From: Candidatus Peribacteraceae bacterium
GTDB lineage: Bacteria; Patescibacteriota; Gracilibacteria; Peribacterales; Peribacteraceae
Reading direction: 5' to 3'
NCBI GenBank assembly: GCA_018061945.1
Contig: JAGOTD010000001.1
Span: forward strand, 151,050 to 215,049
Length of the DNA: 64,000 nt
In this document: positions 5,388 to 63,654 of the stretch, piece by piece
How positions within the stretch are numbered: position 1 is the first letter of the stretch
Layout of the letters: the number at the start of each line of letters is the position of its first letter
Position numbers and translations under genes: made by a program
Notes under the pieces: model-generated
What the model was told of the DNA's origin: nothing
Databases searched by the model: none
Seen by the model: the letters and a program-made list of their open reading frames with translations, nothing else

Positions 5388-6461
5388 CTACCACCCCATC
5401 TTTTTTTTCTGCTCGTCTCCACTCGGCTTCTTGAGCAAATACTCAACGTCCTGCGGATCGACCAAGCCTTCGGCGATCATGCGGTTTAAGTCTTTTTCGA
5501 ATGTTAACATTCCCAGTTCCTGATTCGTCTGCATTACGCTTTCCAGCTCCACAAAGCGGTCTTCGCGGATGATGTTAGAAACGGCAGGCGTGCGGATGAG
5601 AATTTCGCGGTTGGCGATACGGCCGCCGCCTTTGCGCGGCACCAGGCGCTGCGCGACGATTGCGCGTAGCGAAAGGGCCAGCTGCATGCGGATCTGCGTC
5701 TGCTGATGCGATGGAAACACGTCGATAATACGGTCCAAGCTTTGCATGGCGTTTGGCGTGTGCAGCGTGGCCAGTACCAAGTGACCGGTTTCTGCCAGAG
5801 TGAGTGCCAGCGAAATGCTATCTAAATCGCGCATTTCTCCGACCATCACGATATCCGGATCCTGGCGCAACACGTGGCGCAGACCATCGGGAAATGTCTG
5901 AAAGTCTGTTCCCAGCTCGCGCTGGCTTATAAGCGCTTTGTCGGATTTGAAGATGAATTCCACCGGGTCTTCCAGGGTGATAATGTTCACTGGGTGCAAC
6001 TCGTTGATCTTATGCAAAATGGCAGCGAGCGAGGTGGATTTACCGGCACCCGTTGGACCTGTGAACAAAATGAGACCGTCTAGGCTTTGAGCGAGACTAA
6101 GCACCACGCCCGGCAAGAACACATCTTCGGGAGTCGGGACAGTCTGGGGCACCAGACGAGCAGCAAACGCCGGCTCACCGGCCACCATGTGACAGTTGAT
6201 ACGAAAGCGCGTGCCATCGGCGTAGGCAAAGCTACAGTCGATGTCGCCGACTTCCATGAATTTCTTGTACTGGCCTTCGGTCACGAATTCCAAAATGAGC
6301 TGCTTTACCTCGGCAAAAGCCAGCGGCTTTGCCTCTGGCATATTCAGCAGTTTGCCGCTCACACGCAGGCGTGGAATCTGGTCGGTTAAGACATGGATAT
6401 CGGACGCACCCATATCGATTGCGGTTTGCCAAAGCGAGGGGAGAGACGACTTTTGTTTCAT
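5388..6461 (-). CDS. pilT: Type IV pilus retraction ATPase PilT (PilT/PilU family)
   Basis: N-terminal 'GASDIHV', Walker A 'GPTGAGKSTS', 'ITLEDPVEF', 'VGEMRD', 'TGHLVLATLHT'. At 357 aa the size is typical. Confidence 0.9.
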   Translation of the reverse strand: MKQKSSLPSLWQTAIDMGASDIHVLTDQIPRLRVSGKLLNMPEAKPLAFAEVKQLILEFVTEGQYKKFMEVGDIDCSFAYADGTRFRINCHMVAGEPAFAARLVPQTVPTPEDVFLPGVVLSLAQSLDGLILFTGPTGAGKSTSLAAILHKINELHPVNIITLEDPVEFIFKSDKALISQRELGTDFQTFPDGLRHVLRQDPDIVMVGEMRDLDSISLALTLAETGHLVLATLHTPNAMQSLDRIIDVFPSHQQTQIRMQLALSLRAIVAQRLVPRKGGGRIANREILIRTPAVSNIIREDRFVELESVMQTNQELGMLTFEKDLNRMIAEGLVDPQDVEYLLKKPSGDEQKKKMGW

Positions 6462-7053: not shown

Positions 7054-9231
<2,178 letters not shown>

Positions 9232-37110: not shown

Positions 37111-39663
37111 CTAGCTGCCATATCCCTGCTCCAGGAGTCTTCCGAGGAGTGTCGCTACTTCGGCACGGTTGATCGGACTGTTGGGACGGAAGGTGCCGTC
37201 GGGATTGCCTTTGACGATGCCCATGCCCTTGAAAGTATTGATGAGGGGATCGCTGGTATCCGAGAAGAAGACACCAATGCGCGGATCGGGCTGAACGCCG
37301 AGAATGTCGGCCATGGCGTGAATCACCTGCCCGCGCGTCATGGGGGTAAAGACATTCAGATCTTTCGTGTACAGCGAGGGACTTTTCGCCTCCAGTGCAG
37401 CAACGAAGGGGGCTGCCCATGTGTTTTGCGCCGATGCATTGACTGGTGTTGATCCAGACAGATTCATCAATTGCGCGAGCATCTTGGCGACTTCGGCATA
37501 CTGCACATCGCGGCTTGGACGATACAAGCCGAGTGGCTTGCCGTTTGCATCGTTGTAGCCGCTCACAATATTCAGATCTACCAGTATGTCGACAGCCGGA
37601 GCAAAGTAATCGGTAATGAAGACATCTTTGAAGATGACTTGTGTACTGTTGATGGTTTTGGCGAGGAAGCCGGAGGAGGAAGTAAGTTCGGATGGTGTTT
37701 TGAGGACCATTTGACGACGAGGATTGAGTGATGACGACGTAGAGCTTGCGGCAGCTTTCAATGCGGCTTGAGCAGCAAGGTAGTCGGCAAGGGCTTTTTC
37801 GCGCAGTGCTTTTTCATTACTGGACGAAGAAAGTGACGAGCGCGACCAAGAAGAGACAGAGCCAGTTGGCAGAGAGGAGGAGGAAGCTTGGACGAAGGGG
37901 ATGGAAGAGCTGGATGAGCTAGAGCTTGGAAGCGAGGAGGATGCAGAGGAACTCGATAGGCTCGAAGCAGCGCTCGATGACGCTGCGCTGTGCACAGCCC
38001 CGACTCGCTGCCGACAGGCAACGTAATCGAAGCTCAAGCGGTAGTTCTGCGAAAAGGGCTTTCCTTGATCGAGCCACGCATATTGCACACCGGCAGCAAA
38101 AATTTGATCACCTTGTGTGAGATATTTTGGATCCCCTGTTTTTTCGTACAGCCAGCAGTAGGTTGGAGCAATAAGGAGGTTTAAATCTGGCGCGGCAGTA
38201 GTGCAACTAGTGTGATCTTGAAAATCTTGATAACAAAACCCTGTTCCACGCCACATGTTGGCCCAAATATAATCTGCACCTCGTTGAATACCAGGAAGTA
38301 TACGCAGGTCACCAGTCTTTTTTTCGTAGTCCATCAATGCATTTGTCGTGAGTGCAAACATGAAAGGCGCAATACGATAATAATTCCCTGTCTGAAACCA
38401 TTGATCAAGATGGCCAAGCGCCGATGTTACTTGGTCTGCAAGAAGTGGCATGGCACCGAAGCCAGCAGTTTCGTTGTCCATTTTTGCATCGATAGCATAC
38501 GCTGCTTCACGACTGTAAAATTCATTAATATTAGAACTGAGTGCTGTATTGCCGCGTGCACCATTCTTCGCGAGCAAATTAACAGCATTCAGCGAATCTG
38601 CGTCCCCTGTTTTCTGCCAATCGAGAAGAAGACCGCGTGTAAACACACGATAGCCTTGTATTGCGCCATTGTTCACGAAGACATGGCTCCTGTAGACAGC
38701 CTTCACATACTGCGCGCATGTTGTCGCCCACACCGGATCCTTTAGATACTCCGCCATCTGATAGTACACACGAATGCCATCGTAAAACCACACGCTGCCA
38801 TCCCACGTACCTTGAAGATTGATGAGCGACTGATTACAGTGCTTTGTGCCATATTTCTTCATATTCGATTCCCATAGTGCTAACTGCGGAATGGCTGGTG
38901 GAGGATTGATGTATGGCTGTGGCGTGACTCGCACTGGCGCTGGATCAACAATAAGAGGAAGGATGATGCTATGAGCTTTAGCAGCATATGTTCCCGTTAC
39001 CTGAAACGAGTAATTGCCAACCGGCGCATTCGGCGCAGCAGTAACGCGCAGCGATTCAACACCAAACCACTCATCGACAGCACTGACTGTAATCCCGGGC
39101 GGAACATTGTCGAAGGTATATTTTATAGTGAGGTTCGATGCGCCTCCAAGCTGACGAGCACGCACGCTAAAAAGTGCATAACTCCCCTGAAAGACATGGC
39201 TAGGGCTCGACGGATTAACGAGATCAAAATCTACAGGAGCGGTTTTATCGAAAAGCGTAAGAGCACTAAGATCGTCTTGTGCTTTTCCTATTCCTCCAAC
39301 GCCATCTGTTGATACAGCGCGAATGTAATACAGCGTCGAAGGATCCAGTCCGCTGACCGTCACGGCATGAGTCGTTGTCATCGTTTGATCGACAGGTGTC
39401 GATATATCGAATTTTGTTCCCCATGCACTATATTGTACTTGCGATGTCGCTGGCACATTGGTCACCCAATTGAGCGTAAAGCTCGAAATGGTAATATTGG
39501 AAACGCTGATAGACGTAAGAGTAATGGGAGTAGCAGCAAACGTTTGTATTTTTGTTGGCTGCAATAAAGATGGATACACCAGCACTGCTGCAAATACGAT
39601 CATTAACTGACTGAAGATGACGGCGGCAACTTGGACATGGCGTGGATGTGTCTGTTTCTTCAT
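37111..39663 (-). CDS. SLH-anchored surface protein, paralog 1 of 3 (TM anchor, FN3, Ig-like, helical-repeat central domain, Ser-rich linker, 3 SLH)
   Basis: - The ATG at 39663 gives 'MKKQTHPRHVQVAAVIFSQLMIVFAAVLVY', aligning with the other two paralogs; the track TTG start is at 39684.
- FN3 'ITISSFTLNWVTNVPATSQVQYS'.
- SLH 'FKDVFITDYFAPAVDILVDLNIVSGYND' and 'FFSDTSDPLINTFKGMGIVKGNPDGTFRPNSPINRAEVATLLGRLL'. Confidence 0.85.
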   Translation of the reverse strand: MKKQTHPRHVQVAAVIFSQLMIVFAAVLVYPSLLQPTKIQTFAATPITLTSISVSNITISSFTLNWVTNVPATSQVQYSAWGTKFDISTPVDQTMTTTHAVTVSGLDPSTLYYIRAVSTDGVGGIGKAQDDLSALTLFDKTAPVDFDLVNPSSPSHVFQGSYALFSVRARQLGGASNLTIKYTFDNVPPGITVSAVDEWFGVESLRVTAAPNAPVGNYSFQVTGTYAAKAHSIILPLIVDPAPVRVTPQPYINPPPAIPQLALWESNMKKYGTKHCNQSLINLQGTWDGSVWFYDGIRVYYQMAEYLKDPVWATTCAQYVKAVYRSHVFVNNGAIQGYRVFTRGLLLDWQKTGDADSLNAVNLLAKNGARGNTALSSNINEFYSREAAYAIDAKMDNETAGFGAMPLLADQVTSALGHLDQWFQTGNYYRIAPFMFALTTNALMDYEKKTGDLRILPGIQRGADYIWANMWRGTGFCYQDFQDHTSCTTAAPDLNLLIAPTYCWLYEKTGDPKYLTQGDQIFAAGVQYAWLDQGKPFSQNYRLSFDYVACRQRVGAVHSAASSSAASSLSSSSASSSLPSSSSSSSSIPFVQASSSSLPTGSVSSWSRSSLSSSSNEKALREKALADYLAAQAALKAAASSTSSSLNPRRQMVLKTPSELTSSSGFLAKTINSTQVIFKDVFITDYFAPAVDILVDLNIVSGYNDANGKPLGLYRPSRDVQYAEVAKMLAQLMNLSGSTPVNASAQNTWAAPFVAALEAKSPSLYTKDLNVFTPMTRGQVIHAMADILGVQPDPRIGVFFSDTSDPLINTFKGMGIVKGNPDGTFRPNSPINRAEVATLLGRLLEQGYGS

Positions 39664-39700
39664 AGGTTTTTTGTATGAAATCAATCTGGATATTATACCA
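39664..39700 (-). promoter_or_regulatory. Extended -10 promoter and conserved leader
   Basis: The minus strand reads TGGTATAAT-ATCCAGATTG-ATTTCATACAAAAAACCT-ATG. Confidence 0.5.
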
Positions 39701-39836: not shown

Positions 39837-39841
39837 TGTAA

Positions 39842-49527: not shown

Positions 49528-52500
49528 TTAGTTATTCGACTCACTCGACGAACTGGAAGACTCCGAACTGGAGGTGCTCGACTGCGAACTGGATTCACTC
49601 GATTCACTTGAGCTGCTACTCGATTCTTCACTGCTGGATGCACTACTGGACACAGAACTTTCACTACTCGACTCCGAGCTACTGCTGCTCGATTCTTCGC
49701 TTACAGAAGAGCTGATCGACTGCTCACTCGAACTGCTGGAAGAGACAGTAAGCGCATTCCCCTGTTCCTGTACCACTGCTTGGTACCCGACTGGGAGAAT
49801 GAGAATTTTCGGATCGCTTGTCCCGTTCCACGTAAAGGTAATGCGCAAATCCGGATGATCCCACTGGGCGTCGCTGTGGTAGCGACTACAGCTGAATGGC
49901 TGGCCATCAATATCCAAGATCGTCTGATTGCGCACACACGCATTCCAAATCGCGTTGGTCGAAACCGGCACGCCGAGGCTATCGACCGGGAAGGCGATGA
50001 AGCTACCTGTCATAGTGGTACCGCTACTTGTACGCGGAGCGTCTGTTGGGATAGCAATCCATGAGAATGTAATAGCTTGCGGCGCAGGAGAAGCAATACG
50101 AATGGTAAAGCCAGTTGCAGTCGCCTTCGAGACAGCGAAGAGAATTGGATAGTCTGGTGAAGCGGTGACAATCGGCCTCGCAATGAAACCACTGGCGAAC
50201 AGAACGGTAACTGATGTACCGGTTTGTGGAATGACTGCGTAGCCAACCTGTTTGCTGCTCAACTTGAACTCACCCTTCACTTCGACGTCGCCGAGGAAGA
50301 CAGCCAGACCGTTGATGGTGACACCGCCGATAACTTTGAGACTGTTGCGGTCGAGCAGCGAGCCAATATTCACCTGTGCTCCACTGAGTGTCAGTGAGCC
50401 GAGTGAGAAACCGCTACCGGTTGTAATAGGACCATCGATGCGCAAACCACCTTGAATGGTCGCTCCGCTGGATACCGACAGGCCGCCTGCTGCATGGAGT
50501 GGACCAAAAATGGTTGCCCCACTTTCTACACGCAGACTCGTGAATGTGACGCTAGTGGCTCGAAGCGCTCCGGAGAGGAACATATCGGCGGTTACAACTG
50601 TTGCACCGCTGTGAGTAGAGAGACCATAACGAGTTTGCAGCAGATTGGTGATGCCGTCGGTAGAGATAGACGCACCAGAGGACGACAGGCGCTGATCGAT
50701 AAGGTGATTCACCTGCGCCGTCAAATCGAGGGCTTGCAACTGATCGCGTACCGCGGTTGTGACGTTGTCATCCAGATTGAAATTGCGAATGGTATCGCCA
50801 ACCATTTGGTTCACCTGATCATCAATCTTCATAGCGGCAATGCTGTCTAAGACTTTCTGTTCAACGCCTTCGACGGTGAGCGACTGATTGCGTCGCGAGA
50901 TGAGGACATTGATCACTGCTTCCGGTCCACTTGAACCGTTGAATGCTTCGAGCGCCACACCGACAGTACTTTCGCCGGCGCTAGCCCGACGCGCAAAGCC
51001 CGGCTTGCTGGCCGATGTGAGTGAATCACCTGGGTGAATCGGACCATTTTCGAGCGTTACTTTTGCTGGCACCTGACCAATGAGACCGACCAGCTTATAG
51101 CCTGGAGGCATCACGCCATCGGCACCAGTAATATGATTTCCGATGTAGGCCGGATGCGTGGAAATAATACCCATCAGGTTGGTATCGGCATCGCGCATAC
51201 AGCGCTTGACGGTATTGTCATCCAGCGGATCGATACAGACCACTTCGCCTGGCATCAAATCCGCATCTTTGGACTTAAACCACTCCGCGTAGTCGGCACC
51301 GGAGGAGTTATACACGCCGTCGGCGTAGACCGCACCGCTGCCCGAAATACGGAAGACGGTATTATCCGTAGAGCTGACATCCGTAATAATCTTAAACATA
51401 TCTTGCGTGGCCGTCGTTTCGCGGCTGCGAATGCGAATGGCCTCGATATTGTCTGAATTTTTTGTTTCGATGTATAAAGCGGCAGTGGGCACAACGGATC
51501 CTCCAGATCCCAAGGAGACGAGTGCGCCCGAACGACTCGTAATAGAGAGAGCGTAGGCACCTGTAGATGTATTCATTATGGTCGATGCTCCGTGGGCTGT
51601 GACGCCATGTCCGAATACTCCTTCTCCTTGAACGTTCAGATCGCCAAAAATAGTTGCGTTGGTACGAACACTTAACGTTGCCGCTTCCAGAGCACCAACT
51701 TCCAGCTGCTGGATATAGGCACCACCAAGATCGAAGACGTTGAAATATGCCAACGCTGCCGCTGGGTAGGTGGAATAGAGATACCGGCCCTGCATCGCCA
51801 TAACAGCATATCCAGGTGCTGTAAGAGTACCTACCTGAAAGGGCAGACGCGGATTTGAGACGTCGTAGACGAGAATGTTCGAGGAAGATGTCGAAATGTA
51901 CAAATATCGCCCCTGCAGCACCATACGAGACATCGTAGCCGCAGGAACTATCCTGCCTACCGCCGCGCCGACAGATGAAGGATTGCTGATATCAAATATC
52001 TGTAATCCATTGCTGTTATAACCAGACACATAGGCGTAGCGACCTTGCACCTGCACTTCGGTGATGCGGTTTTGCGTATTAATATTGCTCGTCAGTACAA
52101 GATTACGCGGGTTACTCGTATCAAAAATGTACAAATTTCCTCCACTGGCTGCTACATATAAATAGCGACCCTGTACGGTGAGACGCGCCATGGCCGGTGT
52201 TGCAAACTGAGCCGTAGGATTCGCATAAACTGAGACAATCACGGGGGCTGATGGATCACTTATATCTGCCACATAAATGGAATAGGAGGTACCTGTTCCA
52301 ATAAACGCATAGCGACCTTGAACGGCTACCTGAGAGACTCCAGCGCCTGATATTGGAAGAGTAGACACAAATCTTGGCGCTGATGGATTACTAATATCAT
52401 AAATATTCATACCCAAGCTTGAAGCCAAGCCTACGTATGCATACCGACCCTGCACTACAATAGATTGCATGACCGCCGACGCAGCAGTCGACGTACCGAC

Positions 52501-55500
52501 TGTCGTGGGAGTTTCTGGATTCGTCAGATCTCTTACAACAAGTTGATTGGATGAATTAGATACATAGGCGTAGCGGCCTTGGACGGCCAAGGCCATCGTT
52601 GCTGTTGTTGCGTACGAACCGGAACCGACTGGACGAGTGATAGATTTTCCAGGAAGAAACAGCTGCGGAACTATAGCTCCAGTCGAGCCACGCTGAAGGA
52701 AGCCTGATCCAAATTGCACAGTGCCAGTGGCAAGATTTGTACTGATCAATGGAGTCTTTTGGCTGCCCGTACCGGAGATGTACAGACCTTGGCCAGACAT
52801 GGTGCCGCGCACAGAGAGTTGCGTACCCGATAGCGCCGCTGCATAGAAATTCGCATTGGTTTGCAACGCATTTCCCGTTGGCCGACGCAGCGAGACATCG
52901 TAGGTCGTACCCGTACCAAACATTATATGAGCCGTGTTTGTGGTACCACGAGCAGCAATGCGCAGGGCACCCGAGTACGTAGAAATAATAGTGAATGCAT
53001 TCGAACCTGTACTTGTATTAATGAATGACGACTCTCCTTGTACATAGATTCCGCGACCAAATGAACCTCCTCCTGCTACGTTCAATTCACCGAAGATTGC
53101 AGCATTCCCTCTTACCGACAACTGACTTGTCTCGATGCCGCCCGCTTCCAGCTGCTGGATGTATGTACCGCCAATATCAAAGGTATTAATTGCGTTTTTC
53201 GAACCGTTGAGCGCATACAAATATCTTCCTTGCACCGATACATCATTAATCGTTCCGACGTACGGAATGGTGCCGACAGCCTTAGCAACACGAGGATTAC
53301 TAACATCAACAACGGTTATCACTCCGCTTAGATCCGTTACGTACAAGAAGCGTCCTTGGAGAGATAATCTACGTCGTCCGTTATTTCCCGACCCAACAGA
53401 CAGCGTCCTTACAAGCGTTGGATTACTTGGCGTGCTTACGTCAATAATTTGTACTGTGGAACTAATTCCGCTTGCCAAATACACGTAACGTCCTTGAGCC
53501 AGCAAAGCTGACGTGTTAGCAGAAATACTCGTAGAGACCGTCCCTACCTTTACCATGTTGGATGGATTGGAAATATCGAAAACGCTCATGGCCTGCGAAC
53601 AACATGTACCGTTGGTGACATACAAGTATTTACCTTGCGCAGCCATATACGATGTTTGTGACGAGTTTGCAAATGACGCCGTTCCAACTGTAACAATATT
53701 GGAAGGATTACTAATATCGTAGGCAGTAAGCGTACTAGACGATGGCGCTACTCCAAACATATAGCGCCCCTGTATTTCGTCTGCTATGGCCAAAGGGTTA
53801 CTGATTAATGTAGGAGAAGTCGGATTCGATACATCGAAAACATATGTTCGACTATTGCCAAAATTGGACAAATACACGTAGTGTCCCGAAACAAGAAGGT
53901 TCGCAATAGCTTGGTTTACAGTACCGAAACTCGTCGAGCTTAACTGTATGGGAGACTGCGGATTCGACACATCGTAAATATCGAGTTTTGGTGCTGCGCC
54001 AGCAGCCTGATTATAGTTTGCCACGTAGGCCAATCTCCCCTGCACCTTGATAACGTATGGCGTTATTGAAGTTGCGCCAGATCCAACGTACGTCGATGGG
54101 AAGTTAATGCCCGTGTAAAGATTGGGCGTCATGGCACCTGTCGATGTACCAGCAAGAGAAATTGCACCCGAGCCAATGAGAATAGTATTCGTTGGCGTAT
54201 TTGTACGTAACAGCGGACGAGAGCCGGTGCCTGTTATCGTAAGAGATGTGCCAGAGAAGCTATTGGCGTAGAAGTTTGCATTCGTCATCAGCACCAATCC
54301 AGTTGAACGGCGTAGCGACACATCGTACGTGGTGCCGGTACCAAACATAATGTGCGCAGCCGAACTTGTGCCACGGGCGGCGATGCGCAAAGCACCAGAG
54401 TAAGTAGAAATGAGCGTGAGAGTTGTGCCACCCGTTGATGTACTTGAAATTGCAGAGAGTCCGTTAGCATTAAATCCTTGGCCAAAACTTGCAGCTCCGC
54501 GCACATCCAAGTTGCCGAAGATACGCGCGTTGTTCGTCACAGCAAGATCTGTCGTCTCCAAGCTGCCTACTTCTAGTTGCTGGATGTACGCACCACCAAG
54601 ATCGAAGACATTAATCGATGAATTGTTATAATCGATTGTATACGCATACCGGCCTTGTACGGAAATTCCTTGCTGCAAGCTTCCAACGCTTGTCGTTCCT
54701 AGTAAAGTAGGCACACGGGGATTGCTTATGTCATACGTCAGAAGACCATTGGATCCATTGGTAGCATAGAGATAGCGTCCACTGACATCGAAGGAAGTTA
54801 TATTATTAGAAATTGTCGATACTAGTACTGCACTCAATGGATTACTAATATCGTAGATCTTCATACCAAGACCTCCTGATGAACCCATATATAAATACTT
54901 ACCAATTACTTTCAATGTCGTATAACGAAAGCCGGAGCTAATTGTTGCTGCAGTGAATGGATTGGCAGGATTCGATATATCGACAACATACGTTGCCGCT
55001 GTACCAAACGAGTTTGATACATACGCGTACCGTCCCGATACCGTTACACCGCCACCGTAGTTACCGTAAGTTATACTGCCAACAACGTACGGATTGGATG
55101 GATTCGAAATATCTGTGACTCTGAATATACCTCCACTAAACGTCTGCGAATACAAATAGCGTCCTTGAATAGCGATACTCGACTGTGTGCCACCTGCTCC
55201 AACCGCAGACATAAAAATTGGTGTAGCAGGATTACTAATATCGTAAATACGAATTGTCGAAGCACCAGTATAGTTCTGCACGTACGCATAACGACCTTGC
55301 ACCAAAATGCCGTACGGATTAGAAATACCCGACGTCGTTGTCGACAGAAGCTGTGGCTGCTTATTAGAAATATCAAAAATCTGGAAACTGTTCCCCGAGT
55401 AGTTCACCACATACGCGAAACGACCTTGTACCGTTATGGCACTTGGGTTTGCCTGTGTTGCGCCAGAACCCACGTAGGTTGTTGGTACTCTGCCTGCAAC

Positions 55501-58500
55501 GTACAGCTGCGGAGCCATGGCACCCGTACCGTTTTTCATCGCACCTGTACCCATCATTATGGTGCCGTAGCGGTTATCAGTCTTTATGAGCGGCTGTGAA
55601 CCTGTCCCTGTAACAACCAAGCTCTTGCCCGACATAGTACCGCGAATCATGGCATTGCCGTTGATAATCAAGTTGGCACCAGACAGAGTTCCCTTTGTCG
55701 TAATGTTGCCTTTGGCCACAATCGAACCAGAAGTGGTGATGTCGCCAGAGATGTTGAGGGACGAGCCGGAGATAGTAGCGCGGACAGTGAGGGCGCCTGT
55801 CATGGTGCCGCCAGCAGTTCTTAGGTAACGACTGTCACCGATAGTGACGACGTTGCCAGAGCCAAAGGTGCCCGAGCCTCCTGTTAAATCTGTACCACAG
55901 GTAACGTTGCCGCTTCCATCTGTTTTGAGGGTACAGTTACCAAAGTTCTGGAACATCAATGCACCTCTGATGATCATGCCACCCGAACCAGAGATGAGGC
56001 TGGAGATCTTAAGTTGTGAGCCAGAGATGGTGCCAACGACGTCGAGCTGTGTACCAGCGGACACAGTTGTTTTACCAATCGAGAGGACTCCATTTTGAAT
56101 GTAGCTGTTGCCGTTCATGATGGTGAGTAGGCCACCAGAGAGGGTGCCGCGTGTTGAGAGATTGTTTTGGAAGAGACCTGTGCCCTTGGTAATGATGGAA
56201 CCAGAAGTGGTGATGTTGTTAGAAACATTCAAGCTGTAACCCGACATGGTGCCACGGATCAAAAGCTTGGTGCCAGACAGAGAAGCAGCATAGAAATTGG
56301 CATTGGTCTGAAGTGCATTGCCAGTTGGACGACGCAATGAGACATCGTACGTGGTACCCGTACCGAACATAATGTGTGCAGTGGAAGAGCTTCCGCGAGC
56401 GTTGATACGCAATGCACCGGTGTTTGCGGATACTATGGTAAACGCATTGGAGCCCGTGCTGGTATTCAAAATAGTTGACTGGCCCTGCGCAAAGAAACCG
56501 CGACCGAAATATGATCCTCCCATTACAACCAACTCTCCACCCACAGTGGCATTGCCACGTACTGAGAGAGTCCCCGCTTCCAGCCCACCAGTTTCCATTT
56601 GCTGGATATACGCACCACCGATATCGTACACATTCAAAACGTTTTTGCTTCCATTGATGACATACAGATAGCGGCCTTGAACGGCAATATCGTTAATAGT
56701 ACCGGCTGAGGCGAACGTGTTAACCACTTTTGCAACTCGAGGGTTACTCACATCAATCGCGGTAATAACGTTATTTGAGTCGGACACATACAGATATCTG
56801 CCCTGAATCGCCATTCTGCGTCTGCCGTTATTGGCTGCCAATGTCAAAGTCTTGACTGCAAGCGGTCTTGCCGGATTACTAATATCGACAATCTGTACCT
56901 GATTTGACGCACCGCCACCCAAATAGGCATACCGACCCTGTACAAGAACTGATGTGACATAGGTGATAGTAGTTGATGTACCCATACCGCCTACTTTCGT
57001 TAAATTCGTCGGGTTCGATATATCGTATATCGAAAAAGCAGGCGAGCAGCATCCGCCGTTTGCAACGTACAAGTATTTACCTTGAATAGCAGCGTAGCCA
57101 AGGGAGCTCGATCCTGTTTGCGTAGCAGATCCTACCTGGATAGGACTGATCGGATTACTGATGTCATAGGAATAGACACGGCCGTTCGTCGGGTCGGAAC
57201 CGTACAAATAGCGACCCTGTATTTCTGTCGCAACTCCGGAATTAAAACTGATGCCTACCGGCGTAACAGGATTGGATACGTCATAGACTATAACGTTGCT
57301 GTTGGCCGCGTACTCAATATAAACATACCGTCCTCCAACGACAATGTTTGTCAGCGGGTGATTTGGCGTATGAACCGCAGTGCTACTAAGCTTCACAGGA
57401 GCTTGCGGTATGGAAAGATCGAAAATATCAAGCGTCGAACTGGCAGATGAATTGTTAATTACATAGGCAAATTTGCCCTGCACCCTCATGGTAAACGGCG
57501 TAACCGTAGTCGCACCGGAGCCGATATACGAAGATGGGAATGCCGTACCGACATACATGTTTGGCGTCATAGCGCCTGTGGAAGTTCCGGCATTGGAAAG
57601 ATACCCCGAACCGAATGACACAGTGCCTGTTGTCAAATTTGTCTGGATGAGCGGAGAATGTTGTGCACCCGTACCAGAGATGTACAACCCCTGACCCGAC
57701 ATGGTGCCGCGCACATTCAGAAGTGGTGTCGATGTTTCAGTATGCGTGTTGCCGTTTTGTATACTGACTGCACCAGTAAGCGTGCCACCAGACAGTCTGA
57801 GGTAGCGTGCATCGGCAGCAGTCATGGTGAAGGCAGTTCCACAGCTTGTCACTCCGTTACCATCGGTGATGATCATGGCACAGCTCTTAAGGCTGGAGAC
57901 AGTGAGAGTCTGACCCGAGAGGGTTCCACGGAAGGTGGCGTTACCATTGATGAGAATACCACCAGAGCCAGAGATGAGGCTGGAGATCTTAAGTTGTGAA
58001 CCAGAGATGGTGCCAACGACATCGAGCTGTGTACCAGCGGACACAGTTGTTTTACCAATCGAGAGGACTCCATTTTGAATGTAGCTGTTGCCGTTCATGA
58101 TGGTGAGCAGGCCACCAGAGAGGGTGCCGCGTGTTGAGAGATTGTTTTGGAAGAGACCTGTGCCCTTGGTAATGATGGAACCAGAAGTGGTGATGTTGTT
58201 AGAAACATTCAAGCTGTAACCCGACATTGTGCCACGGATCAAAAGCTTGGTGCCAGACAGAGAAGCAGCGTAGAAATTGGCATTGGTCTGAAGTGCATTG
58301 CCAGTTGGACGACGCAATGAGACATCGTACGTGGTACCCGTACCGAACATAATGTGTGCAGCCGAACTTGTGCCACGAGCAGCTATACGTAGTGCGCCTG
58401 AATAGGTAGAAATAAGTGTCAGAGCAGTTGCACCTGTAGATGTAGACGCGATGGCCGATGGACCGTTAGCATTAAATCCATTACCAAAGCTTGCACCACC

Positions 58501-61500
58501 AGCAACGTCCAAGTTTCCGTAGACAGCTGCATTGCCACGCACAGCTAATGTGCCTGCTTCAATGCCACCAACTTCCAACTGCTGGATATACGCACCGCCA
58601 AGGTCGTACGTATTAATGCTGCTAGATGTCTGATTCACGACGTATGCATAACGACCCTGGACAAACACAGAATTTGCCAGTGAGCCAGTTGGCATCGTTC
58701 CAACAAGTGTAGGTACAGACGGATTGGAAACATCAACAACAATGACCGTATTATTAGCCCCTCCCGCGATATACGCATAACGACCCTGGACATACACTGA
58801 CAGTGTTGGATTTCCAGAAGCAATCGTGAGCGAACTTCGTAATGTGAGTGCTGTTGGACTGGAAAGATCCGTAATATTGAAACTATTTGTATACGCCGTA
58901 TACGCATAGCGACCTTGAACGAATAATGCTCCACCAACACGAGTTGCAGACTGCCCAACATACGCTGGTGCGGCTGGGTTGCTTACATCCACAGAGAAAA
59001 GGTAGTTCGTGCTTGCATTAGATCCAGTAACGTAAACATAGTTACCGAGAACAGATATGTTCGTGACAGCCGAAAGATTCGCATTCGTTGTGGTCCCAAC
59101 CATAATTGGATTGGCTGGATTACTAATATCAAAGACACCAACTCCACCTGACGATGCAGACCCTCCGTACAAATATCGTCCTTGTATTGCCAACGCTCCA
59201 CCAGCAACTGTGCTAGCTAAGTACTTCACAAGGCGTGGCGACGCAGGATTCGAAATATCCACAATCCACAATCCATGACCAGCACCACCCTTCGTAACAA
59301 AGTATGCATACCGACCCTGAACCACGACGTGCGTTGCAATATAGTTTGTACCTATGGAATACGAACCAACTAATTGAGGCGTTGCTGTACTTACATCGAA
59401 TATCTCCAATTTATTCGTTGAGAAATTACCACCTACCACGTAAGCATAACGACCCTGCACATACACATCGAAAGGAGTCGCATTTGTTGCTCCGCTACCA
59501 ACCCACGTTGTCGGAACACGACCTGCAACGTACAGCTGCGGAGCCATGGCACCAGTACCGTTTTTCATGGCGCCAGTTCCCATCATTATGGTGCCGTAGC
59601 GGTTGTCAGTTTTTATGAGCGGCTGGGAACCTGTCCCTGTAACAACCAAGCTCTTGCCCGACATAGTACCGCGAATCATGGCATTGCCGTTGATAATCAA
59701 GTTGGCGCCAGACAGAGTTCCCTTCGTCGTGATATTTCCTTTAGTCACAATCGAACCAGAAGTGGTGATGTTGTTAGAGATGTTGAGCGATGAGCCGGAG
59801 ATAGCGGCGCGGACGGTGAGAGCACCTGTGACAGTACCACCCGAGAGACGGAGGTAGCGTGCGTCAGCAGCAGTCATGGTGAAGGCAGTTCCACAGCTTG
59901 TCACTCCGTTACCATCGGTGATGATCATGGCACAGCTCTTAAGGCTGGAGACAGTGAGAGTCTGACCCGAGAGGGTTCCACGGAAGGTGGAGTTACCATT
60001 GATGAGAATGCCACCAGAGCCAGAGATGAGGCCGGAGATCTTGAGGGCAGAGCCAGAGATGGTGCCGACGACATCGAGCTTAGTTCCAGCGGAGACGGTT
60101 GTTTTGCCGATAGAGAGAGAACCATTTTGAATGTAGCTGTTGCCGTTCATAATGGTGAGCAGACCACCAGAGAGGGTGCCGCGAGTGGAGAGGTTGTTTT
60201 GGAAGAGACCTGTGCCCTTGGCAATAATGGAACCAGAAGTGGTGATGTTGTTGGAGATGTTGAGCGACGAACCAGAGATGGCGGCGCGGACGGTGAGGGC
60301 GCCTGTCATGGTGCCGCCAGCAGTTCTTAGGTAACGACTGTCACCGATAGTGATGACGTTGCCAGAGCCAAAGGTGCCCGAGCCTCCTCCTGTTAAGTCT
60401 GTGCCACAGGTAACGTTGCCGTTTCCATCTGTCTTAAGGGTACAGTTACCAAAGTTCTGGAACATCAATGCACCTCTTATGATCATGCCACCCGAGCCAG
60501 AGATGAGACTAGAGATTTTAAGTTGTGAGCCAGAGATAGTACCGACGACGTCGAGTTTGGTGCCAGCTGCGACAGAGGTTTTACCGATGGCGATGTTTCC
60601 CAGAAGGTAGGAATCTCCATTCATAATTCTAAGCGCTGCGCCAGAGAGTGATGTACGAGCATTGATCGATCCATTGGTGGTGATGGATCCAGAGTTCGAG
60701 ATATTGCCAGAAATATTGGCGTTCCCATTAAGGATAAGGCCAGCGCCAGAGAAGGTAGATTTTGTGGTAATGGAGTTCTTGGCGATAATGGCGCCAGAAG
60801 TGGTGATGTTGTTAGAGATATTGAGCGACGAACCAGAGATGGCGGCGCGGACGGTGAGGGCGCCTGTCATGGTACCGCCAGCAGTTCTGACGTAACGACT
60901 GTCACCGATAGTAACAACTTGTCCAGAACCGAAACCAGCGGGAGTTGTAGACCAAGTCAGGTTTCCAGCTCCATCAGTCTTGAGGTAACCACTTGGTGTT
61001 TGCGAACCGGCAAACGTATATGTTTGACCGTTAATTGTGAGAGTAGAATTGAATCGAACGTCTTTCGTAAAGACAGTAGTGCCCGAGAAACCAGCAGTCC
61101 CCATAATGCGCAGCGCTGCACCCGAGAGTGTGCCCTTTACGGTTGTATCATTTTTCAGAAGTGATGGACCAACAACTGTAAGCGTGCCAGACGACGACAA
61201 TCCTTTTTCTGCATGAATGTACGCACCCGATGCCGTCTGAAGAATATTGAGTCCGAGATAGCCAGATTTAAGGTTGATGACCAGACCACCCGTCATCGTA
61301 TCGCCGGTCTGCTTCACATAATGCAAATCTGCATATAATTGCGACAGACCCGTCACAGCAACGGATGACCACATAAGTCCGCCAGTTGGCGTAACAGTCA
61401 GCACCTGTCCATTGGAACCAATACCGAAATCTGTAAACGTTCCAGCAGCATTTCCTAGAAGCAACGATCCAGAACCGATGCTACTAAGACCCGTTCCGCC

Positions 61501-62343
61501 TCTGCTAACTGCCAGAATGCCAGTCACTTCACTACTGAGATTGATCGGCTGGCCAGCAAAATCGCGCTGGCTTCCACCAGATGTAGAACCAGATGTCTGA
61601 TTACCACCGCCACCTCCGCCTCCATAATGACGCTCGACGGGAGATCCATCCGCGGGCTGCACATACGGTATGCGGCCGCTGCTTATCGGATGCAGCGAAG
61701 AATATGCCTCATCAATATCGATCCACACCAATTTTCCTTTCTGATAGCTGAGCACTTGTCCGTCGGTTGCCGGACCCATCGCCATAAGAAGGACGCGCAG
61801 CGAACGAGCCAAAAGGCCGGACGTATCGACTGTCGCTAGGGCGGAAGGAATAGGAGGTTGCTGTCCTTCTTGAACCGGACCATACGCTGGAGCTGCGGCG
61901 TGATTATTCGCCAAGCGTGCCAAGCGACGCAGATACGCTCTTTCGTTTGTAGCTGAGTAATAGGTTTCGTGCGTCACTGCTTCTTTGCCATTGGATGTGA
62001 AAATATTTTCTTGCGTAAACAGTGGAGCGGAAACAGTTGAGCCGTTGCCTGCTGGCACGACTGAAGTCACCGTTCGTGTCATATGGGCGACACCGGTAAA
62101 CGGACGGATCGCAGTATTGATAATCAATCCACTATCTGGCTTCTCGCCGATGCCAAGTGAGAGACGATTGATGATCGCACCCTTTGGAATAATTTCGAGA
62201 GCCGGCACATTCAAGAATAAGAGACCACCCTCCCCGGCCAAGTTGGACGCCTGCGTGATGGCAATCGCCAGGAGCGACAGCAGCAGTATGCCTGCAGCTA
62301 GCAGGAGCGAGGAAAGCCGGTGAGGACGGTTTATATATCTCAC
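49528..62343 (-). CDS. 4271-aa giant surface protein: N-terminal TM anchor, tail-fibre-like repeats, five 7-bladed LVIVD-type beta-propellers, Peptidase_G2/IMC-like domain, possible H-type-lectin-like domain, acidic poly-Ser tail
   Basis: - Uninterrupted 12.8-kb ORF with a GTG start overlapping the upstream stop (GTGA at 62340-62343).
- TM 'LSSLLLAAGILLLSLLAIAI'.
- Tail-fibre motifs 'VSRGGTGLSS', 'KQTGDTMTGGLVI' and repeated 'RTAGGTMTGALTVRA'.
- 35 blades of the form 'VQGRYAYV....L.I.D(V/I)SNP..P'.
- Five 'GGAYIQQLE' junctions.
- 'SGADYAEWF...PGEVVCID...NLMGIISTHPAYIGN'.
- Tail '...SSSSSESSESSSQSSTSSSESSSSSSESNN'. Confidence 0.9.
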   Translation of the reverse strand: MRYINRPHRLSSLLLAAGILLLSLLAIAITQASNLAGEGGLLFLNVPALEIIPKGAIINRLSLGIGEKPDSGLIINTAIRPFTGVAHMTRTVTSVVPAGNGSTVSAPLFTQENIFTSNGKEAVTHETYYSATNERAYLRRLARLANNHAAAPAYGPVQEGQQPPIPSALATVDTSGLLARSLRVLLMAMGPATDGQVLSYQKGKLVWIDIDEAYSSLHPISSGRIPYVQPADGSPVERHYGGGGGGGNQTSGSTSGGSQRDFAGQPINLSSEVTGILAVSRGGTGLSSIGSGSLLLGNAAGTFTDFGIGSNGQVLTVTPTGGLMWSSVAVTGLSQLYADLHYVKQTGDTMTGGLVINLKSGYLGLNILQTASGAYIHAEKGLSSSGTLTVVGPSLLKNDTTVKGTLSGAALRIMGTAGFSGTTVFTKDVRFNSTLTINGQTYTFAGSQTPSGYLKTDGAGNLTWSTTPAGFGSGQVVTIGDSRYVRTAGGTMTGALTVRAAISGSSLNISNNITTSGAIIAKNSITTKSTFSGAGLILNGNANISGNISNSGSITTNGSINARTSLSGAALRIMNGDSYLLGNIAIGKTSVAAGTKLDVVGTISGSQLKISSLISGSGGMIIRGALMFQNFGNCTLKTDGNGNVTCGTDLTGGGSGTFGSGNVITIGDSRYLRTAGGTMTGALTVRAAISGSSLNISNNITTSGSIIAKGTGLFQNNLSTRGTLSGGLLTIMNGNSYIQNGSLSIGKTTVSAGTKLDVVGTISGSALKISGLISGSGGILINGNSTFRGTLSGQTLTVSSLKSCAMIITDGNGVTSCGTAFTMTAADARYLRLSGGTVTGALTVRAAISGSSLNISNNITTSGSIVTKGNITTKGTLSGANLIINGNAMIRGTMSGKSLVVTGTGSQPLIKTDNRYGTIMMGTGAMKNGTGAMAPQLYVAGRVPTTWVGSGATNATPFDVYVQGRYAYVVGGNFSTNKLEIFDVSTATPQLVGSYSIGTNYIATHVVVQGRYAYFVTKGGAGHGLWIVDISNPASPRLVKYLASTVAGGALAIQGRYLYGGSASSGGVGVFDISNPANPIMVGTTTNANLSAVTNISVLGNYVYVTGSNASTNYLFSVDVSNPAAPAYVGQSATRVGGALFVQGRYAYTAYTNSFNITDLSSPTALTLRSSLTIASGNPTLSVYVQGRYAYIAGGANNTVIVVDVSNPSVPTLVGTMPTGSLANSVFVQGRYAYVVNQTSSSINTYDLGGAYIQQLEVGGIEAGTLAVRGNAAVYGNLDVAGGASFGNGFNANGPSAIASTSTGATALTLISTYSGALRIAARGTSSAAHIMFGTGTTYDVSLRRPTGNALQTNANFYAASLSGTKLLIRGTMSGYSLNVSNNITTSGSIITKGTGLFQNNLSTRGTLSGGLLTIMNGNSYIQNGVLSIGKTTVSAGTQLDVVGTISGSQLKISSLISGSGGILINGNATFRGTLSGQTLTVSSLKSCAMIITDGNGVTSCGTAFTMTAADARYLRLSGGTLTGAVSIQNGNTHTETSTPLLNVRGTMSGQGLYISGTGAQHSPLIQTNLTTGTVSFGSGYLSNAGTSTGAMTPNMYVGTAFPSSYIGSGATTVTPFTMRVQGKFAYVINNSSASSTLDIFDLSIPQAPVKLSSTAVHTPNHPLTNIVVGGRYVYIEYAANSNVIVYDVSNPVTPVGISFNSGVATEIQGRYLYGSDPTNGRVYSYDISNPISPIQVGSATQTGSSSLGYAAIQGKYLYVANGGCCSPAFSIYDISNPTNLTKVGGMGTSTTITYVTSVLVQGRYAYLGGGASNQVQIVDISNPARPLAVKTLTLAANNGRRRMAIQGRYLYVSDSNNVITAIDVSNPRVAKVVNTFASAGTINDIAVQGRYLYVINGSKNVLNVYDIGGAYIQQMETGGLEAGTLSVRGNATVGGELVVMGGSYFGRGFFAQGQSTILNTSTGSNAFTIVSANTGALRINARGSSSTAHIMFGTGTTYDVSLRRPTGNALQTNANFYAASLSGTKLLIRGTMSGYSLNVSNNITTSGSIITKGTGLFQNNLSTRGTLSGGLLTIMNGNSYIQNGVLSIGKTTVSAGTQLDVVGTISGSQLKISSLISGSGGMIIRGALMFQNFGNCTLKTDGSGNVTCGTDLTGGSGTFGSGNVVTIGDSRYLRTAGGTMTGALTVRATISGSSLNISGDITTSGSIVAKGNITTKGTLSGANLIINGNAMIRGTMSGKSLVVTGTGSQPLIKTDNRYGTIMMGTGAMKNGTGAMAPQLYVAGRVPTTYVGSGATQANPSAITVQGRFAYVVNYSGNSFQIFDISNKQPQLLSTTTSGISNPYGILVQGRYAYVQNYTGASTIRIYDISNPATPIFMSAVGAGGTQSSIAIQGRYLYSQTFSGGIFRVTDISNPSNPYVVGSITYGNYGGGVTVSGRYAYVSNSFGTAATYVVDISNPANPFTAATISSGFRYTTLKVIGKYLYMGSSGGLGMKIYDISNPLSAVLVSTISNNITSFDVSGRYLYATNGSNGLLTYDISNPRVPTLLGTTSVGSLQQGISVQGRYAYTIDYNNSSINVFDLGGAYIQQLEVGSLETTDLAVTNNARIFGNLDVRGAASFGQGFNANGLSAISSTSTGGTTLTLISTYSGALRIAARGTSSAAHIMFGTGTTYDVSLRRSTGLVLMTNANFYANSFSGTSLTITGTGSRPLLRTNTPTNTILIGSGAISLAGTSTGAMTPNLYTGINFPSTYVGSGATSITPYVIKVQGRLAYVANYNQAAGAAPKLDIYDVSNPQSPIQLSSTSFGTVNQAIANLLVSGHYVYLSNFGNSRTYVFDVSNPTSPTLISNPLAIADEIQGRYMFGVAPSSSTLTAYDISNPSNIVTVGTASFANSSQTSYMAAQGKYLYVTNGTCCSQAMSVFDISNPSNMVKVGTVSTSISANTSALLAQGRYVYLASGISSTVQIIDVSTPSNPTLVRTLSVGSGNNGRRRLSLQGRFLYVTDLSGVITVVDVSNPRVAKAVGTIPYVGTINDVSVQGRYLYALNGSKNAINTFDIGGTYIQQLEAGGIETSQLSVRGNAAIFGELNVAGGGSFGRGIYVQGESSFINTSTGSNAFTIISTYSGALRIAARGTTNTAHIMFGTGTTYDVSLRRPTGNALQTNANFYAAALSGTQLSVRGTMSGQGLYISGTGSQKTPLISTNLATGTVQFGSGFLQRGSTGAIVPQLFLPGKSITRPVGSGSYATTATMALAVQGRYAYVSNSSNQLVVRDLTNPETPTTVGTSTAASAVMQSIVVQGRYAYVGLASSLGMNIYDISNPSAPRFVSTLPISGAGVSQVAVQGRYAFIGTGTSYSIYVADISDPSAPVIVSVYANPTAQFATPAMARLTVQGRYLYVAASGGNLYIFDTSNPRNLVLTSNINTQNRITEVQVQGRYAYVSGYNSNGLQIFDISNPSSVGAAVGRIVPAATMSRMVLQGRYLYISTSSSNILVYDVSNPRLPFQVGTLTAPGYAVMAMQGRYLYSTYPAAALAYFNVFDLGGAYIQQLEVGALEAATLSVRTNATIFGDLNVQGEGVFGHGVTAHGASTIMNTSTGAYALSITSRSGALVSLGSGGSVVPTAALYIETKNSDNIEAIRIRSRETTATQDMFKIITDVSSTDNTVFRISGSGAVYADGVYNSSGADYAEWFKSKDADLMPGEVVCIDPLDDNTVKRCMRDADTNLMGIISTHPAYIGNHITGADGVMPPGYKLVGLIGQVPAKVTLENGPIHPGDSLTSASKPGFARRASAGESTVGVALEAFNGSSGPEAVINVLISRRNQSLTVEGVEQKVLDSIAAMKIDDQVNQMVGDTIRNFNLDDNVTTAVRDQLQALDLTAQVNHLIDQRLSSSGASISTDGITNLLQTRYGLSTHSGATVVTADMFLSGALRATSVTFTSLRVESGATIFGPLHAAGGLSVSSGATIQGGLRIDGPITTGSGFSLGSLTLSGAQVNIGSLLDRNSLKVIGGVTINGLAVFLGDVEVKGEFKLSSKQVGYAVIPQTGTSVTVLFASGFIARPIVTASPDYPILFAVSKATATGFTIRIASPAPQAITFSWIAIPTDAPRTSSGTTMTGSFIAFPVDSLGVPVSTNAIWNACVRNQTILDIDGQPFSCSRYHSDAQWDHPDLRITFTWNGTSDPKILILPVGYQAVVQEQGNALTVSSSSSSEQSISSSVSEESSSSSSESSSESSVSSSASSSEESSSSSSESSESSSQSSTSSSESSSSSSESNN

Positions 62344-63173
62344 TGGGCGGAAGGAGAAGATGTATCGTTTACCTGCGTACTCAACACCGATCGACCTGTA
62401 TCGTTCACCTGTGTCCGAATATCATGCGCAAAAATCGCCAACTGGCTTGAGGCCAGTAGCCAACCGATTGCAACGAGCGACAGGGCGATGCCGAGCTTAT
62501 GGAGCACCGAGGTAACTGCATGGAACAAATGCGAAGCCTGTTTCTCTGAAGGGGAAACAGATGTCTGCACTTTTTTCAGGGCAGCGCAGACATCTAATTC
62601 CGGAACTGATGTAATGGGCAACATGCTGTCAGCAAGTACCGATCGTCTATCGGCTACCTGCATGAATGGCTGCACATTGTCATTCGATTGAGGTGCTGAT
62701 TGCCCTTGCACCAATGCGCGATCGAGTTCTTGTACCGACATCCAGATACCCTGCTCGCGCGCCAGAATTTGTAGCAGCTGCTTTTTTTCGAGGTACGGAT
62801 ACTGGCGATGATAGTGCGTAACCACTTGAACCAAGTGATGCGACACCGACACTTTTTTTATCTGCAGCGAACGATGAGATCTCTCTTCCAAGCTAAATGG
62901 ATTACTTGGATCAAAACGCACTAACCAACGCTGCAACGTCGTGCGTGCAATCGCGAAGTAATGACACGTTTTGCTTATAGATCGACCATGATCGACGAAG
63001 TACACCAGCCACTCCAAGCGTTGCTTTGCCTCCGGAGACAGACGCAGCTCTTCCTGCCTCTTTTGAAGGCTTTGTAACTGCTCGCGCTGGAGAGAAGAAA
63101 ATCGCATTGAGTGTATATATGTGTTGGTATATGCGTGTCGCGCTTCATCGCAACTATCAAATTTTCTAGTCAT
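62340..63173 (-). CDS. Transposase-derived (IS481/IS3-type N-terminal) HTH protein lacking a catalytic domain, with a C-terminal TM helix; translationally coupled to the giant gene
   Basis: 'LSPEAKQRLEWLVYFVDHGRSISKTCHYFAIARTTLQRWLVRFDPSNPFSLEERSHRS...YPYLEKKQLLQILAREQGIWMSVQELDRAL' matches the double-HTH N-terminal region of rve-type transposases. No DDE/rve region follows. Instead there is a linker and the TM helix 'IALSLVAIGWLLASSQLAIFA'. The start is uncertain; an alternative ATG at 63107 gives 'MRFSSLQ..'. Confidence 0.65.
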   Translation of the reverse strand: MTRKFDSCDEARHAYTNTYIHSMRFSSLQREQLQSLQKRQEELRLSPEAKQRLEWLVYFVDHGRSISKTCHYFAIARTTLQRWLVRFDPSNPFSLEERSHRSLQIKKVSVSHHLVQVVTHYHRQYPYLEKKQLLQILAREQGIWMSVQELDRALVQGQSAPQSNDNVQPFMQVADRRSVLADSMLPITSVPELDVCAALKKVQTSVSPSEKQASHLFHAVTSVLHKLGIALSLVAIGWLLASSQLAIFAHDIRTQVNDTGRSVLSTQVNDTSSPSAQ

Positions 63174-63456
63174 TATAGCAGAAAAACACTTTTCTTACAA
63201 TAGTCACATACTGGAGTTTTCCGCATATCTGTAAGCAGGCAAACGCTGTGTAGTCGCAACGAAAAAATTTCGCCCCCTATGACCACCGACCTGCTGTCTT
63301 TGATAGATACATGCCGCATGAGCGGGTTGCGCGACAGAAATTAATAAATGGCTTTTACATGCCATATTTGCCTGTAGCGAATCACACATCACACGACAAA
63401 TTCATTCACTTTATATCGATACTATGGTCTGATATGTAATACCGGGCACACAGCGT

Positions 63457-63568
63457 GTCACTCTGAGCGCAGCCGAAGAGTGACTTGGCGATTTGCAAGC
63501 ATTTCCTCGGCGTCATAGTTCGACCCGTCCGACCGCATCCGGGCAGGCTGCGCTCACTATGACACATT
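63457..63568. repeat. Cluster of short palindromes (GTCACTCTGAGCGCAGCC.. type)
   Basis: GTCACTCT/AGAGTGAC (63457-63484) and GTCATAGT/ACTATGAC (63512-63568). GAGCGCAGCC (63465-63474) is complementary to GGCTGCGCTC (63546-63555). Confidence 0.5.
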
Positions 63569-63654
63569 GTTGTATGTTTATGAGATGACTCTAGAACCAA
63601 ATACCTTTCTGCCATTTCTCACATTCCTGCCTTTTTATGATATTCTCTCAGCCT

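Follow-up and report, generated by a model that had tools for sequence, protein, structure and literature searches.

We identified, in a 64,000-nucleotide (nt) stretch of DNA from a Candidatus Peribacteraceae bacterium (contig JAGOTD010000001.1, positions 151,050 to 215,049; hereafter the window), a short minus-strand gene whose product combines the DNA-binding head of an IS481-type transposase with a single transmembrane (TM) helix, and which overlaps the start of a gene for a 4271-amino-acid (aa) surface protein. The anatomy of the protein, its domestication and its partnership with the giant gene are solid. From these we infer a membrane-tethered, DNA-binding regulator of the giant-gene operon, a reading to which we assign a probability of roughly 55 %; DNA binding, the operator, the direction of regulation and a signal from the giant protein are the conjectural parts of it.

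Bacterial transposase DNA-binding domains that have been domesticated as host regulators are scarce, and the Peregrinibacteria family described here is large, lineage-wide and under selection. Genes for giant surface proteins stand out most amongst the unexplained genes of the candidate phyla radiation (CPR), bacteria with a lifestyle that is thought to involve attachment to hosts. With a dedicated regulator and its conserved candidate operator, the timing of giant-protein production would become accessible to experiment.

A domesticated transposase head with a membrane anchor

The open reading frame (ORF) first annotated at 62340..63173 on the minus strand (277 aa) is present in the window, but the start assigned to it at 63173 was not upheld. 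The coding sequence most likely begins at ATG 63107 and spans 62340..63107 (-), encoding 255 aa and a TGA stop, since 63173 lies inside the -10 hexamer of the promoter, the homologues begin at M23, and relatives have the upstream extension out of frame or not at all. In the public gene call, the identical protein (P0001) has 255 aa and M23 of the 277-aa ORF as its first residue, and all homologues start MRF..L at this position. ATG 63173 sits within the TATAATg of the conserved promoter, which ends at 63172; the frame of the upstream extension is broken by a 1-nt indel in the homologous locus L001, and the ATG is missing in L009 (TATAATTA).

The IS481 transposase model of NCBIfam (NF033577) matched residues 51-156 (277-aa numbering) over profile positions 1-104 of 284, with E=2.9e-11; the score of 43.4 bits compares with a curated cut-off of 224 bits, and does not extend to membership of the whole protein. 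IS481-like transposases that bear the rve domain showed 34-40 % identity over ~110 aa (E 1e-10 to 1e-21 in blast and tblastn searches). An OmpR-type winged helix (Trans_reg_C) was absent in Pfam and NCBIfam scans, in which transposase-type helix-turn-helix (HTH) domains alone were matched. An AlphaFold2 (AF2) model, built from a 44-row alignment with a mean predicted local distance difference test score (pLDDT) of 78, was all-helical, and consisted of two three-helix bundles (residues 25-64 and 90-137 in 255-aa numbering, pLDDT ~97), a disordered region (140-190) and a long helix (191-241). An IS481-type DNA-binding N-terminus, as claimed in the first-pass annotation, is therefore supported by both the profile match and the model, and the HTH assignment stands.

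The first HTH, at 62916..63035 (-), covers residues 25-64 (PEAKQRLEW...IARTTLQRWLVR; helices H25-39, H44-51 and H55-64) and is the invariant core of the family. The second, at 62697..62840 (-), covers residues 90-137 (H90-102, H108-119 and H125-137, again with pLDDT ~97), and aligns with the HTH_32 region of transposases and of soluble paralogues. It is followed by a disordered linker of ~65 aa (residues 138-202, 62502..62696 (-), pLDDT 44-64), which is only 22 % identical to that of the orthologue. The predicted TM helix (residues 203-227, 62427..62501 (-)) lies within the AF2 helix 191-241 and corresponds to the sole hydrophobic segment of the protein, the 25-residue HKLGIALSLVAIGWLLASSQLAIFA, with a hydropathy maximum (KD19) of 1.93; hydropathy indicates that the helix is kept in homologues. 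The translations of both HTH segments and of the TM segment were checked. The remaining ~28 aa (62343..62426 (-)) form a putative extracytoplasmic tail, which aligns with the first ectodomain residues of fused relatives; the tails of four close homologues are 30-43 aa in length. Linker and single TM helix thus occupy the place of the catalytic domain, as originally described. The accompanying label of a one-component sensor was overstated, because a tail of ~28 aa leaves no room for a sensor domain of the protein's own.

A (C/H)xCxxC(R/K/S) motif was observed 10-15 residues before the TM helix in most membrane-anchored and fused relatives (P0004, P0124-P0239, and the fusions L046, L050, L051 and P0018), but the window protein and its two closest homologues lack it. 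The residues W-E often follow the TM helix in family members.

The DDE catalytic domain is entirely missing. The Pfam scan of the window protein gave no rve match, and when 11 full-length transposases (rve confirmed by Pfam in the five that were scanned) were searched by tblastn against the six frames of the window, they matched at 63041-62712 alone, via their N-terminal ~110-140 residues; their catalytic parts detected no rve/DDE remnant in any frame, including downstream of the gene or frameshifted. A repeat search found no terminal repeats resembling those of an insertion sequence (IS) around the gene or around three homologous loci, in agreement with the earlier description, and the gene is single-copy within the window. 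Given the lack of rve and of IS ends and a score below the cut-off, the gene is not a member of the IS481 family. We conclude that it is the domesticated DNA-binding head of an IS481-type transposase that has lost its DDE domain.

Comparison with the L001 orthologue gave proportions of nonsynonymous differences (pN) of 0.062 for HTH 1, 0.075 for HTH 2, 0.17 for the TM helix and 0.58 for the linker. The ratio to the synonymous proportion (pN/pS) was ~0.08 for both HTHs, 0.28 for the TM helix and 0.73 for the linker, at synonymous sites that are saturated (pS 0.73-0.92); purC of L001 is 89 % identical. Both HTHs are under strong purifying selection and are the most constrained parts of the protein.

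The locus is chromosomal, with purC divergent upstream and the housekeeping genes ligA, ftsH and purB elsewhere in the window. GC content is flat over the window, and because the composition is not distinct the locus does not merit the term 'island' that was first applied to it. A prophage origin was also considered and is not supported, as the IMG/VR viral contigs contained no relatives.

Partnership and fusion with surface-fibre genes

The TGA stop of the HTH-TM gene overlaps the GTG start of the 4271-aa gene in the sequence GTGA (62340..62343 (-)), exactly as initially reported. The CAGTGA junction is also found in L001 and L007, and L009 has instead an 11-nt ATG..TAA overlap. A secreted giant or fibre-like gene was next on the same strand in 8/8 of the HTH-TM loci examined, either overlapping or no more than 125 nt away. 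The downstream proteins are of 4271 aa in the window (GTGA overlap), 3054-3066 aa in L001 (GTGA possible), >3334 aa in L007 (GTGA overlap), 2744 aa in L009 (11-nt overlap), 6792 aa in L070 (125-nt gap, with purC synteny), 345 aa and then 1564 aa in L072 (GTGA overlap), at least 325 aa in L075 (11-nt overlap) and 4217 aa in L076 (50-nt gap). Conservation beside giant-gene homologues was an explicit test of the original proposal, and a giant or fibre gene was found next to every relative examined. A wider conserved neighbourhood was rejected: in the synteny test purC was shared only by the nearest relative and L070/L071, and since so few loci share it, the pair itself is the conserved unit. We also rejected a -1 frameshift fusion of the HTH-TM and giant genes, for which there is no slippery site and whose product would have two TM helices and the wrong topology.

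The giant gene (49528..62343 (-)), the partner and probable target of the HTH-TM protein, encodes LVIVD repeats (E=3e-127) and has beta-propeller matches. Its product has a single N-terminal hydrophobic signal-anchor segment (residues 12-30), followed by TQA and then S. The FG..L..L.F motif of shorter fibre proteins was absent from four giant proteins.

To place the gene in its family we scanned one genome per species, in a pattern-limited search that yielded 60 loci. Matches in Chloroflexota, Acidobacteriota, Saccharimonadia and other lineages were transposases of 300-380 aa; all five of these that were scanned carry rve or rve_3, and some are multi-copy. Loci without the catalytic domain were confined to Candidatus Peregrinibacteria/Peribacteria metagenome-assembled genomes (MAGs), the exceptions being a few short ORFs elsewhere, and rve was absent from every Peregrinibacteria family protein scanned. 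The scan found one locus per Peregrinibacteria MAG, versus three copies of a real IS in one Saccharimonadia genome.

The family takes three forms: soluble, anchored (HTH-TM, like the window protein) and fused. The soluble form comprises ~20 double-HTH proteins of 156-195 aa, each encoded between a 4-nt overlap and a few nt from a gene for a secreted fibre-like protein, typically of 570-865 aa. In the fused form a single polypeptide contains the HTH, the TM helix and a fibre ectodomain (L037, L045, L046, L050 and L051). The 1008-aa fusion L037 corresponds, in order along its length, to a soluble HTH gene and the gene downstream of it (E=3e-60 and 0), and the 750-aa L050 is likewise colinear with the 188-aa HTH-TM protein P0106 and a 345-aa fibre protein. 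Moreover, the N-terminal repeats of the window giant protein have homologues in the ectodomains of L045, L046, L050 and L051 (E down to 2e-25). At the level of sequence, these colinear fusions are a Rosetta-stone link between the HTH module and fibre proteins, and gene fusion confirms that link. Taken as a series, the three forms show how a domain of mobile-element origin came to be linked with proteins of the cell surface.

In a neighbour-joining tree of the HTH region, calculated without bootstrap, all three forms make up one clade apart from the transposases, within which the anchored and fused forms group together, with the soluble form as their sister. A single origin is supported by this separation of the rve-less relatives, as one Peregrinibacteria clade, from the rve-bearing transposases of Chloroflexota, Acidobacteriota and Saccharimonadia. 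A profile search of 5.8 billion proteins revealed a corresponding gap in scores, with the rve-less family at E 1e-51 to 1e-70 and transposases at 1e-38 or weaker. Exhaustive HMMER searching of 1.84 billion representatives returned 216 clusters at E<1e-10, far more than the 4 clusters recovered by an earlier word-index search. Amongst the top 151 clusters (146 new representatives listed and five family members already in hand), 63 were short HTH-linker-TM proteins, most with tails of ~25-45 aa, 22 were fusions of 485-2094 aa, and just 3 had transposase-like lengths; the family members therein add up to at least 85 clusters at 50 % identity. The family goes unmentioned in the Peribacteria genome paper.

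The Rifle Peribacteria genome GCA_001787535.1 (L072/L073) encodes a 955-965-aa HTH_32 fusion protein 10 kb from P0106 and its 345-aa fibre partner. This co-occurrence demonstrates that family members can be paralogous within one genome.

Promoter, candidate operator and proposed function

A sigma-70-like promoter with an extended -10 element (TTGTAA, 17 nt, TG-n-TATAAT) was predicted at 63172..63200 (-), with 10/12 positions matched in the scan. The -35, spacer and -10 are kept in 4/4 of the closest loci, despite protein identity as low as 33 %. Between the promoter and the ATG lies a C/A-rich 5' leader of ~58 nt (63108..63165 (-)), which is conserved in the four-locus alignment and includes the block GAAGCGCGAC/GGAGCGCTAC.

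Centred on the -10 hexamer is an inverted repeat, TTTTCT-N12-AGAAAA (63162..63185, no strand assigned). Its form TTTTC-N14-GAAAA occurs at a fixed distance of 75-78 nt before the ATG in the window, L001, L007 and L009, with a varying spacer, and in none of 28 other Peregrinibacteria family loci checked. The four proteins encoded at the repeat-bearing loci all have the recognition helix IARTTL(Q/H)RW. We consider the repeat a plausible candidate for an autoregulatory operator; it overlaps promoter elements, and for this reason its conservation alone is no proof of such a function.

Just 2 matches to TTTTC-N(12-16)-GAAAA were found in the whole window. The second, TTTTC-N16-GAAAA at 33320-33345 (+), lies over a TACAAT sequence ~130 nt before the gene at 33475. 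It was rejected as a meaningful copy, as at least 2 matches occurred in 15/100 shuffled sequences.

Further features were observed in the purC/HTH intergenic region. A block at 63348-63395 (-) (GTGATGTGTGATtCGCTACA), followed by a hairpin and a T-run, is conserved with L001 and had no Rfam match; it could be the 3' end of a small RNA or a terminator. A 25-nt inverted repeat (63450-63474 / 63546-63570), with arms 80 % complementary and 71 nt between them, is specific to the window, and lies in a stretch to which nothing aligns in the orthologous intergenic region of L001. An Rfam search of 62300-64000 gave no match at E<=1.

In the mechanism that we favour, a bipartite, paired-like double HTH would be held at the cytoplasmic face of the membrane by the C-terminal TM helix. 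The HTH-TM gene would be the first gene of an operon transcribed from the strong conserved promoter and, given the overlap of its stop with the giant-gene start, the giant gene would be transcribed, and probably translated, only together with it. The protein may bind its own promoter at the candidate site straddling the -10 box, and expression of the giant-gene operon would thereby be set from the membrane, in the manner of a transmembrane transcription regulator with a co-component partner. Purifying selection, loss of rve and conservation of both partnership and promoter are direct observations; binding and operator function are predicted, and the direction in which expression would be altered is likewise a deduction.

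Several points weigh against this proposal, in which DNA binding and regulation by the HTH-TM protein are predictions. Matches to Pfam HTH_28, HTH_Tnp_IS630, HTH_29 and HTH_23 were all below the gathering scores. A Foldseek search against the PDB placed the DNA-bound bipartite domains of the TnsB, IstA, Mu and SETMAR transposases and Pax paired domains at the top of its list, but with nothing at E<=0.001 (E 0.05 to ~2) the ranking is just suggestive; a PDB sequence search with the family profile gave no match at E<=1. The inverted repeat overlaps the TG of the extended -10 and the start region, and promoter function alone could explain its conservation. On its own, the ~28-aa tail is too short for sensing, and, as the soluble paralogues show, the family can fulfil its role without membrane anchoring. 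It should also be noted that the missing Shine-Dalgarno sequence before the giant gene adds nothing to the argument for coupling and was rejected as such, because the genome uses none (0/28 gene starts in the window have one); the case for translational coupling therefore lies in the conserved stop/start overlaps themselves.

We tentatively suggest, as a scenario less probable than the regulator proposed above, that an IS481 head was captured once across Peregrinibacteria as the cytoplasmic module of signal-anchored fibre proteins, with the stub or released HTH feeding back on transcription. A specific version, which would refine the tethered-regulator proposal and which we regard as rather unlikely, holds that the HTH-TM protein corresponds, as the product of a gene of its own, to the stub that signal peptidase would leave on cutting the fusions (HTH, TM helix, AxA, then SSW and the fibre). 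A site-2 protease would then clip the TM helix and free the HTH, and the free regulator would report fibre export. Consistent with this model, the fusions show a TM helix, then AxA, then SSW(N/S)PTLLVNTE; at L072, a split locus, this ectodomain is preceded by a signal peptide of its own that ends in ALA immediately before ATSSWSPTLLVNTE (ALA, then ATSSW); and the split HTH-TM proteins have tails that align with the initial residues of the fusion ectodomains. Site-2 proteases such as RseP prefer substrates with short tails, and the family tails, uniformly short at ~25-45 aa, would suit them. The window tail of ~28 aa is longer than a signal-peptidase remnant, however, and the literature searched gave no precedent for an HTH N-terminal to a signal peptide. 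Circumstantial support from protease genes (a Peptidase_M50 gene 8 kb from one such locus, and a PDZ/S41 tail-specific protease in the window) is offset by their being unlinked to the HTH-TM locus. The position of the HTH before an apparently cleavable signal peptide in the fusions nonetheless suggests that HTH release may be coupled to secretion. Should the fusions be cut at AxA, placing an HTH ahead of a signal peptide would be a new means of linking secretion with transcription; export of the giant protein would be wired directly to gene expression, and transposase capture in bacteria would have given rise to a new class of secretion-coupled, membrane-bound transcription factor.

Alternatively, the anchored HTH could act as a physical tether that holds its own locus at the membrane and couples transcription, translation and Sec export (transertion), leaving transcription levels unchanged. 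The exclusive association with very long or secreted fibre genes, the translationally coupled arrangement in cis and the conserved site at the gene's own promoter would all fit such a role. We consider it improbable, as the ~20 soluble paralogues, which have no TM helix and are unable to tether, are coupled to similar secreted proteins, and as a site that overlaps the -10 box should obstruct RNA polymerase.

We give equally little credence to re-use of the HTH fold without DNA binding, for example as a cytoplasmic assembly or targeting factor for the N-terminus or mRNA of the giant protein. Stoichiometric coupling and gene fusion are the usual marks of a physical interaction between proteins, and most family members have the juxtamembrane CxCxxC, but the window protein lacks this motif. 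In addition, the recognition-helix motif C(R/H)(H/Y)F(G/A)IAR.T..RW is common to active transposases, and it is the two HTHs that selection has constrained the most.

Finally, a decaying IS481 insertion lying by chance upstream of the giant gene, to which the sole database-recognisable similarity (to IS481 and IS630 transposases) and the JGI label 'transposase' on relatives might point, is effectively refuted by the lack of an rve remnant in any frame and of terminal repeats, by strong purifying selection, by a promoter and gene order conserved at 33 % protein identity, by the monophyly of the Peregrinibacteria family, for which the pattern-limited scan gave one locus per MAG (one Rifle genome having two paralogues), and by the absence of viral-contig relatives.

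Genomic setting and comparison with known systems

A cluster of genes for S-layer-homology surface proteins (25258-31110 and 37111-49282 (-)), headed by the giant gene, includes three paralogues of 857, 869 and 877 aa, a 1304-aa Big_7/Big_3_5/SLH/SH3 protein and a 1950-aa fn3/beta-helix/SLH protein. A two-gene cassette is present as an inverted duplication (31334-32431 (-) and 33475-34570 (+)); it encodes a 126-aa protein starting MARLPxSGxDSGTWGDVLNTFL and a 235/241-aa Laminin_G_3 protein, and the plus-strand copy is followed by a gene for an 803-aa protein with no Pfam match. Adjoining genes at 11094-15194 (+) encode a PKD and 7TM_transglut membrane protein and a fusion of ATP-grasp_ST with MATCAP (tyrosine carboxypeptidase-like). 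The PDZ and Peptidase_S41 (tail-specific protease type) protein of the window is encoded at 4085-5284 (+), unlinked to the HTH-TM locus, and the Peptidase_M50 (site-2 protease type) gene is found at 1717-2391 of L076, 8 kb upstream of the HTH-TM/giant pair there.

No Shine-Dalgarno sequence was found at 28/28 gene starts in the window, and in several genes (for example 5388..6461, 7159..9231 and 37111..39684) the distance between a -10-like box and the start codon is no more than ~15 nt. Together these features suggest leaderless or very short-leader mRNAs.

The closest relatives of the window protein by sequence are the IS481-family transposases (NF033577; HTH_28 + HTH_32 + rve/rve_3), with which it shares a homologous N-terminal bipartite HTH, including the motif TC(R/H)(H/Y)F(G/A)IAR.T..RW..R(F/Y) and the subsequent L(E/D).(R/S)S(R/H)(R/P) segment. 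Unlike these elements, the window gene has no DDE/rve domain and no terminal inverted repeats, and occurs only once in the 64 kb of the window; the catalytic domain has given way to a linker, a TM helix and a tail, and the gene is inherited as a host gene with a fixed partner. IS3-type OrfA, an HTH-only regulator of transposition, is similarly a short protein composed of the transposase HTH region alone. OrfA belongs to an IS with orfB downstream, whereas the window gene precedes a surface-protein gene and carries a TM helix.

Capture of transposases by eukaryotic genomes (the Pax paired domain, SETMAR and FHY3/FAR1) offers a parallel, in that a DNA-binding head was kept under selection whilst the catalytic part was lost or replaced; the paired domain and the SETMAR DNA-binding domain were also amongst the nearest structural neighbours in the weak Foldseek ranking. 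The window gene differs in being bacterial, from the CPR, and in that the head is joined not to a nuclear effector domain but to a membrane anchor or a secreted protein. The literature searched for transposase-derived transcription factors contained eukaryotic cases only, with no bacterial counterpart.

Transmembrane transcription regulators are defined by a predicted DNA-binding domain and a predicted TM region (PMC10269533), and the window protein has both. Transposases are not mentioned in the main text of that survey (PMC10269533). Transmembrane regulators with a downstream partner are an established class, exemplified by ToxR/ToxS, TcpP/TcpH and VtrA/VtrC (PMC10269533; PMC9214523). Like ToxR/ToxS-type systems, the window protein has a cytoplasmic N-terminal DNA-binding domain, one TM helix and a predicted N-in topology, and the gene for its partner envelope protein lies immediately downstream in the same operon (PMC9214523). 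It departs from them in having a transposase-type double HTH rather than an OmpR-type winged helix, in carrying a tail of only ~28 aa instead of a periplasmic sensor domain, and in its partner, which is a 4271-aa LVIVD/beta-propeller fibre protein rather than a small lipocalin-like protein.

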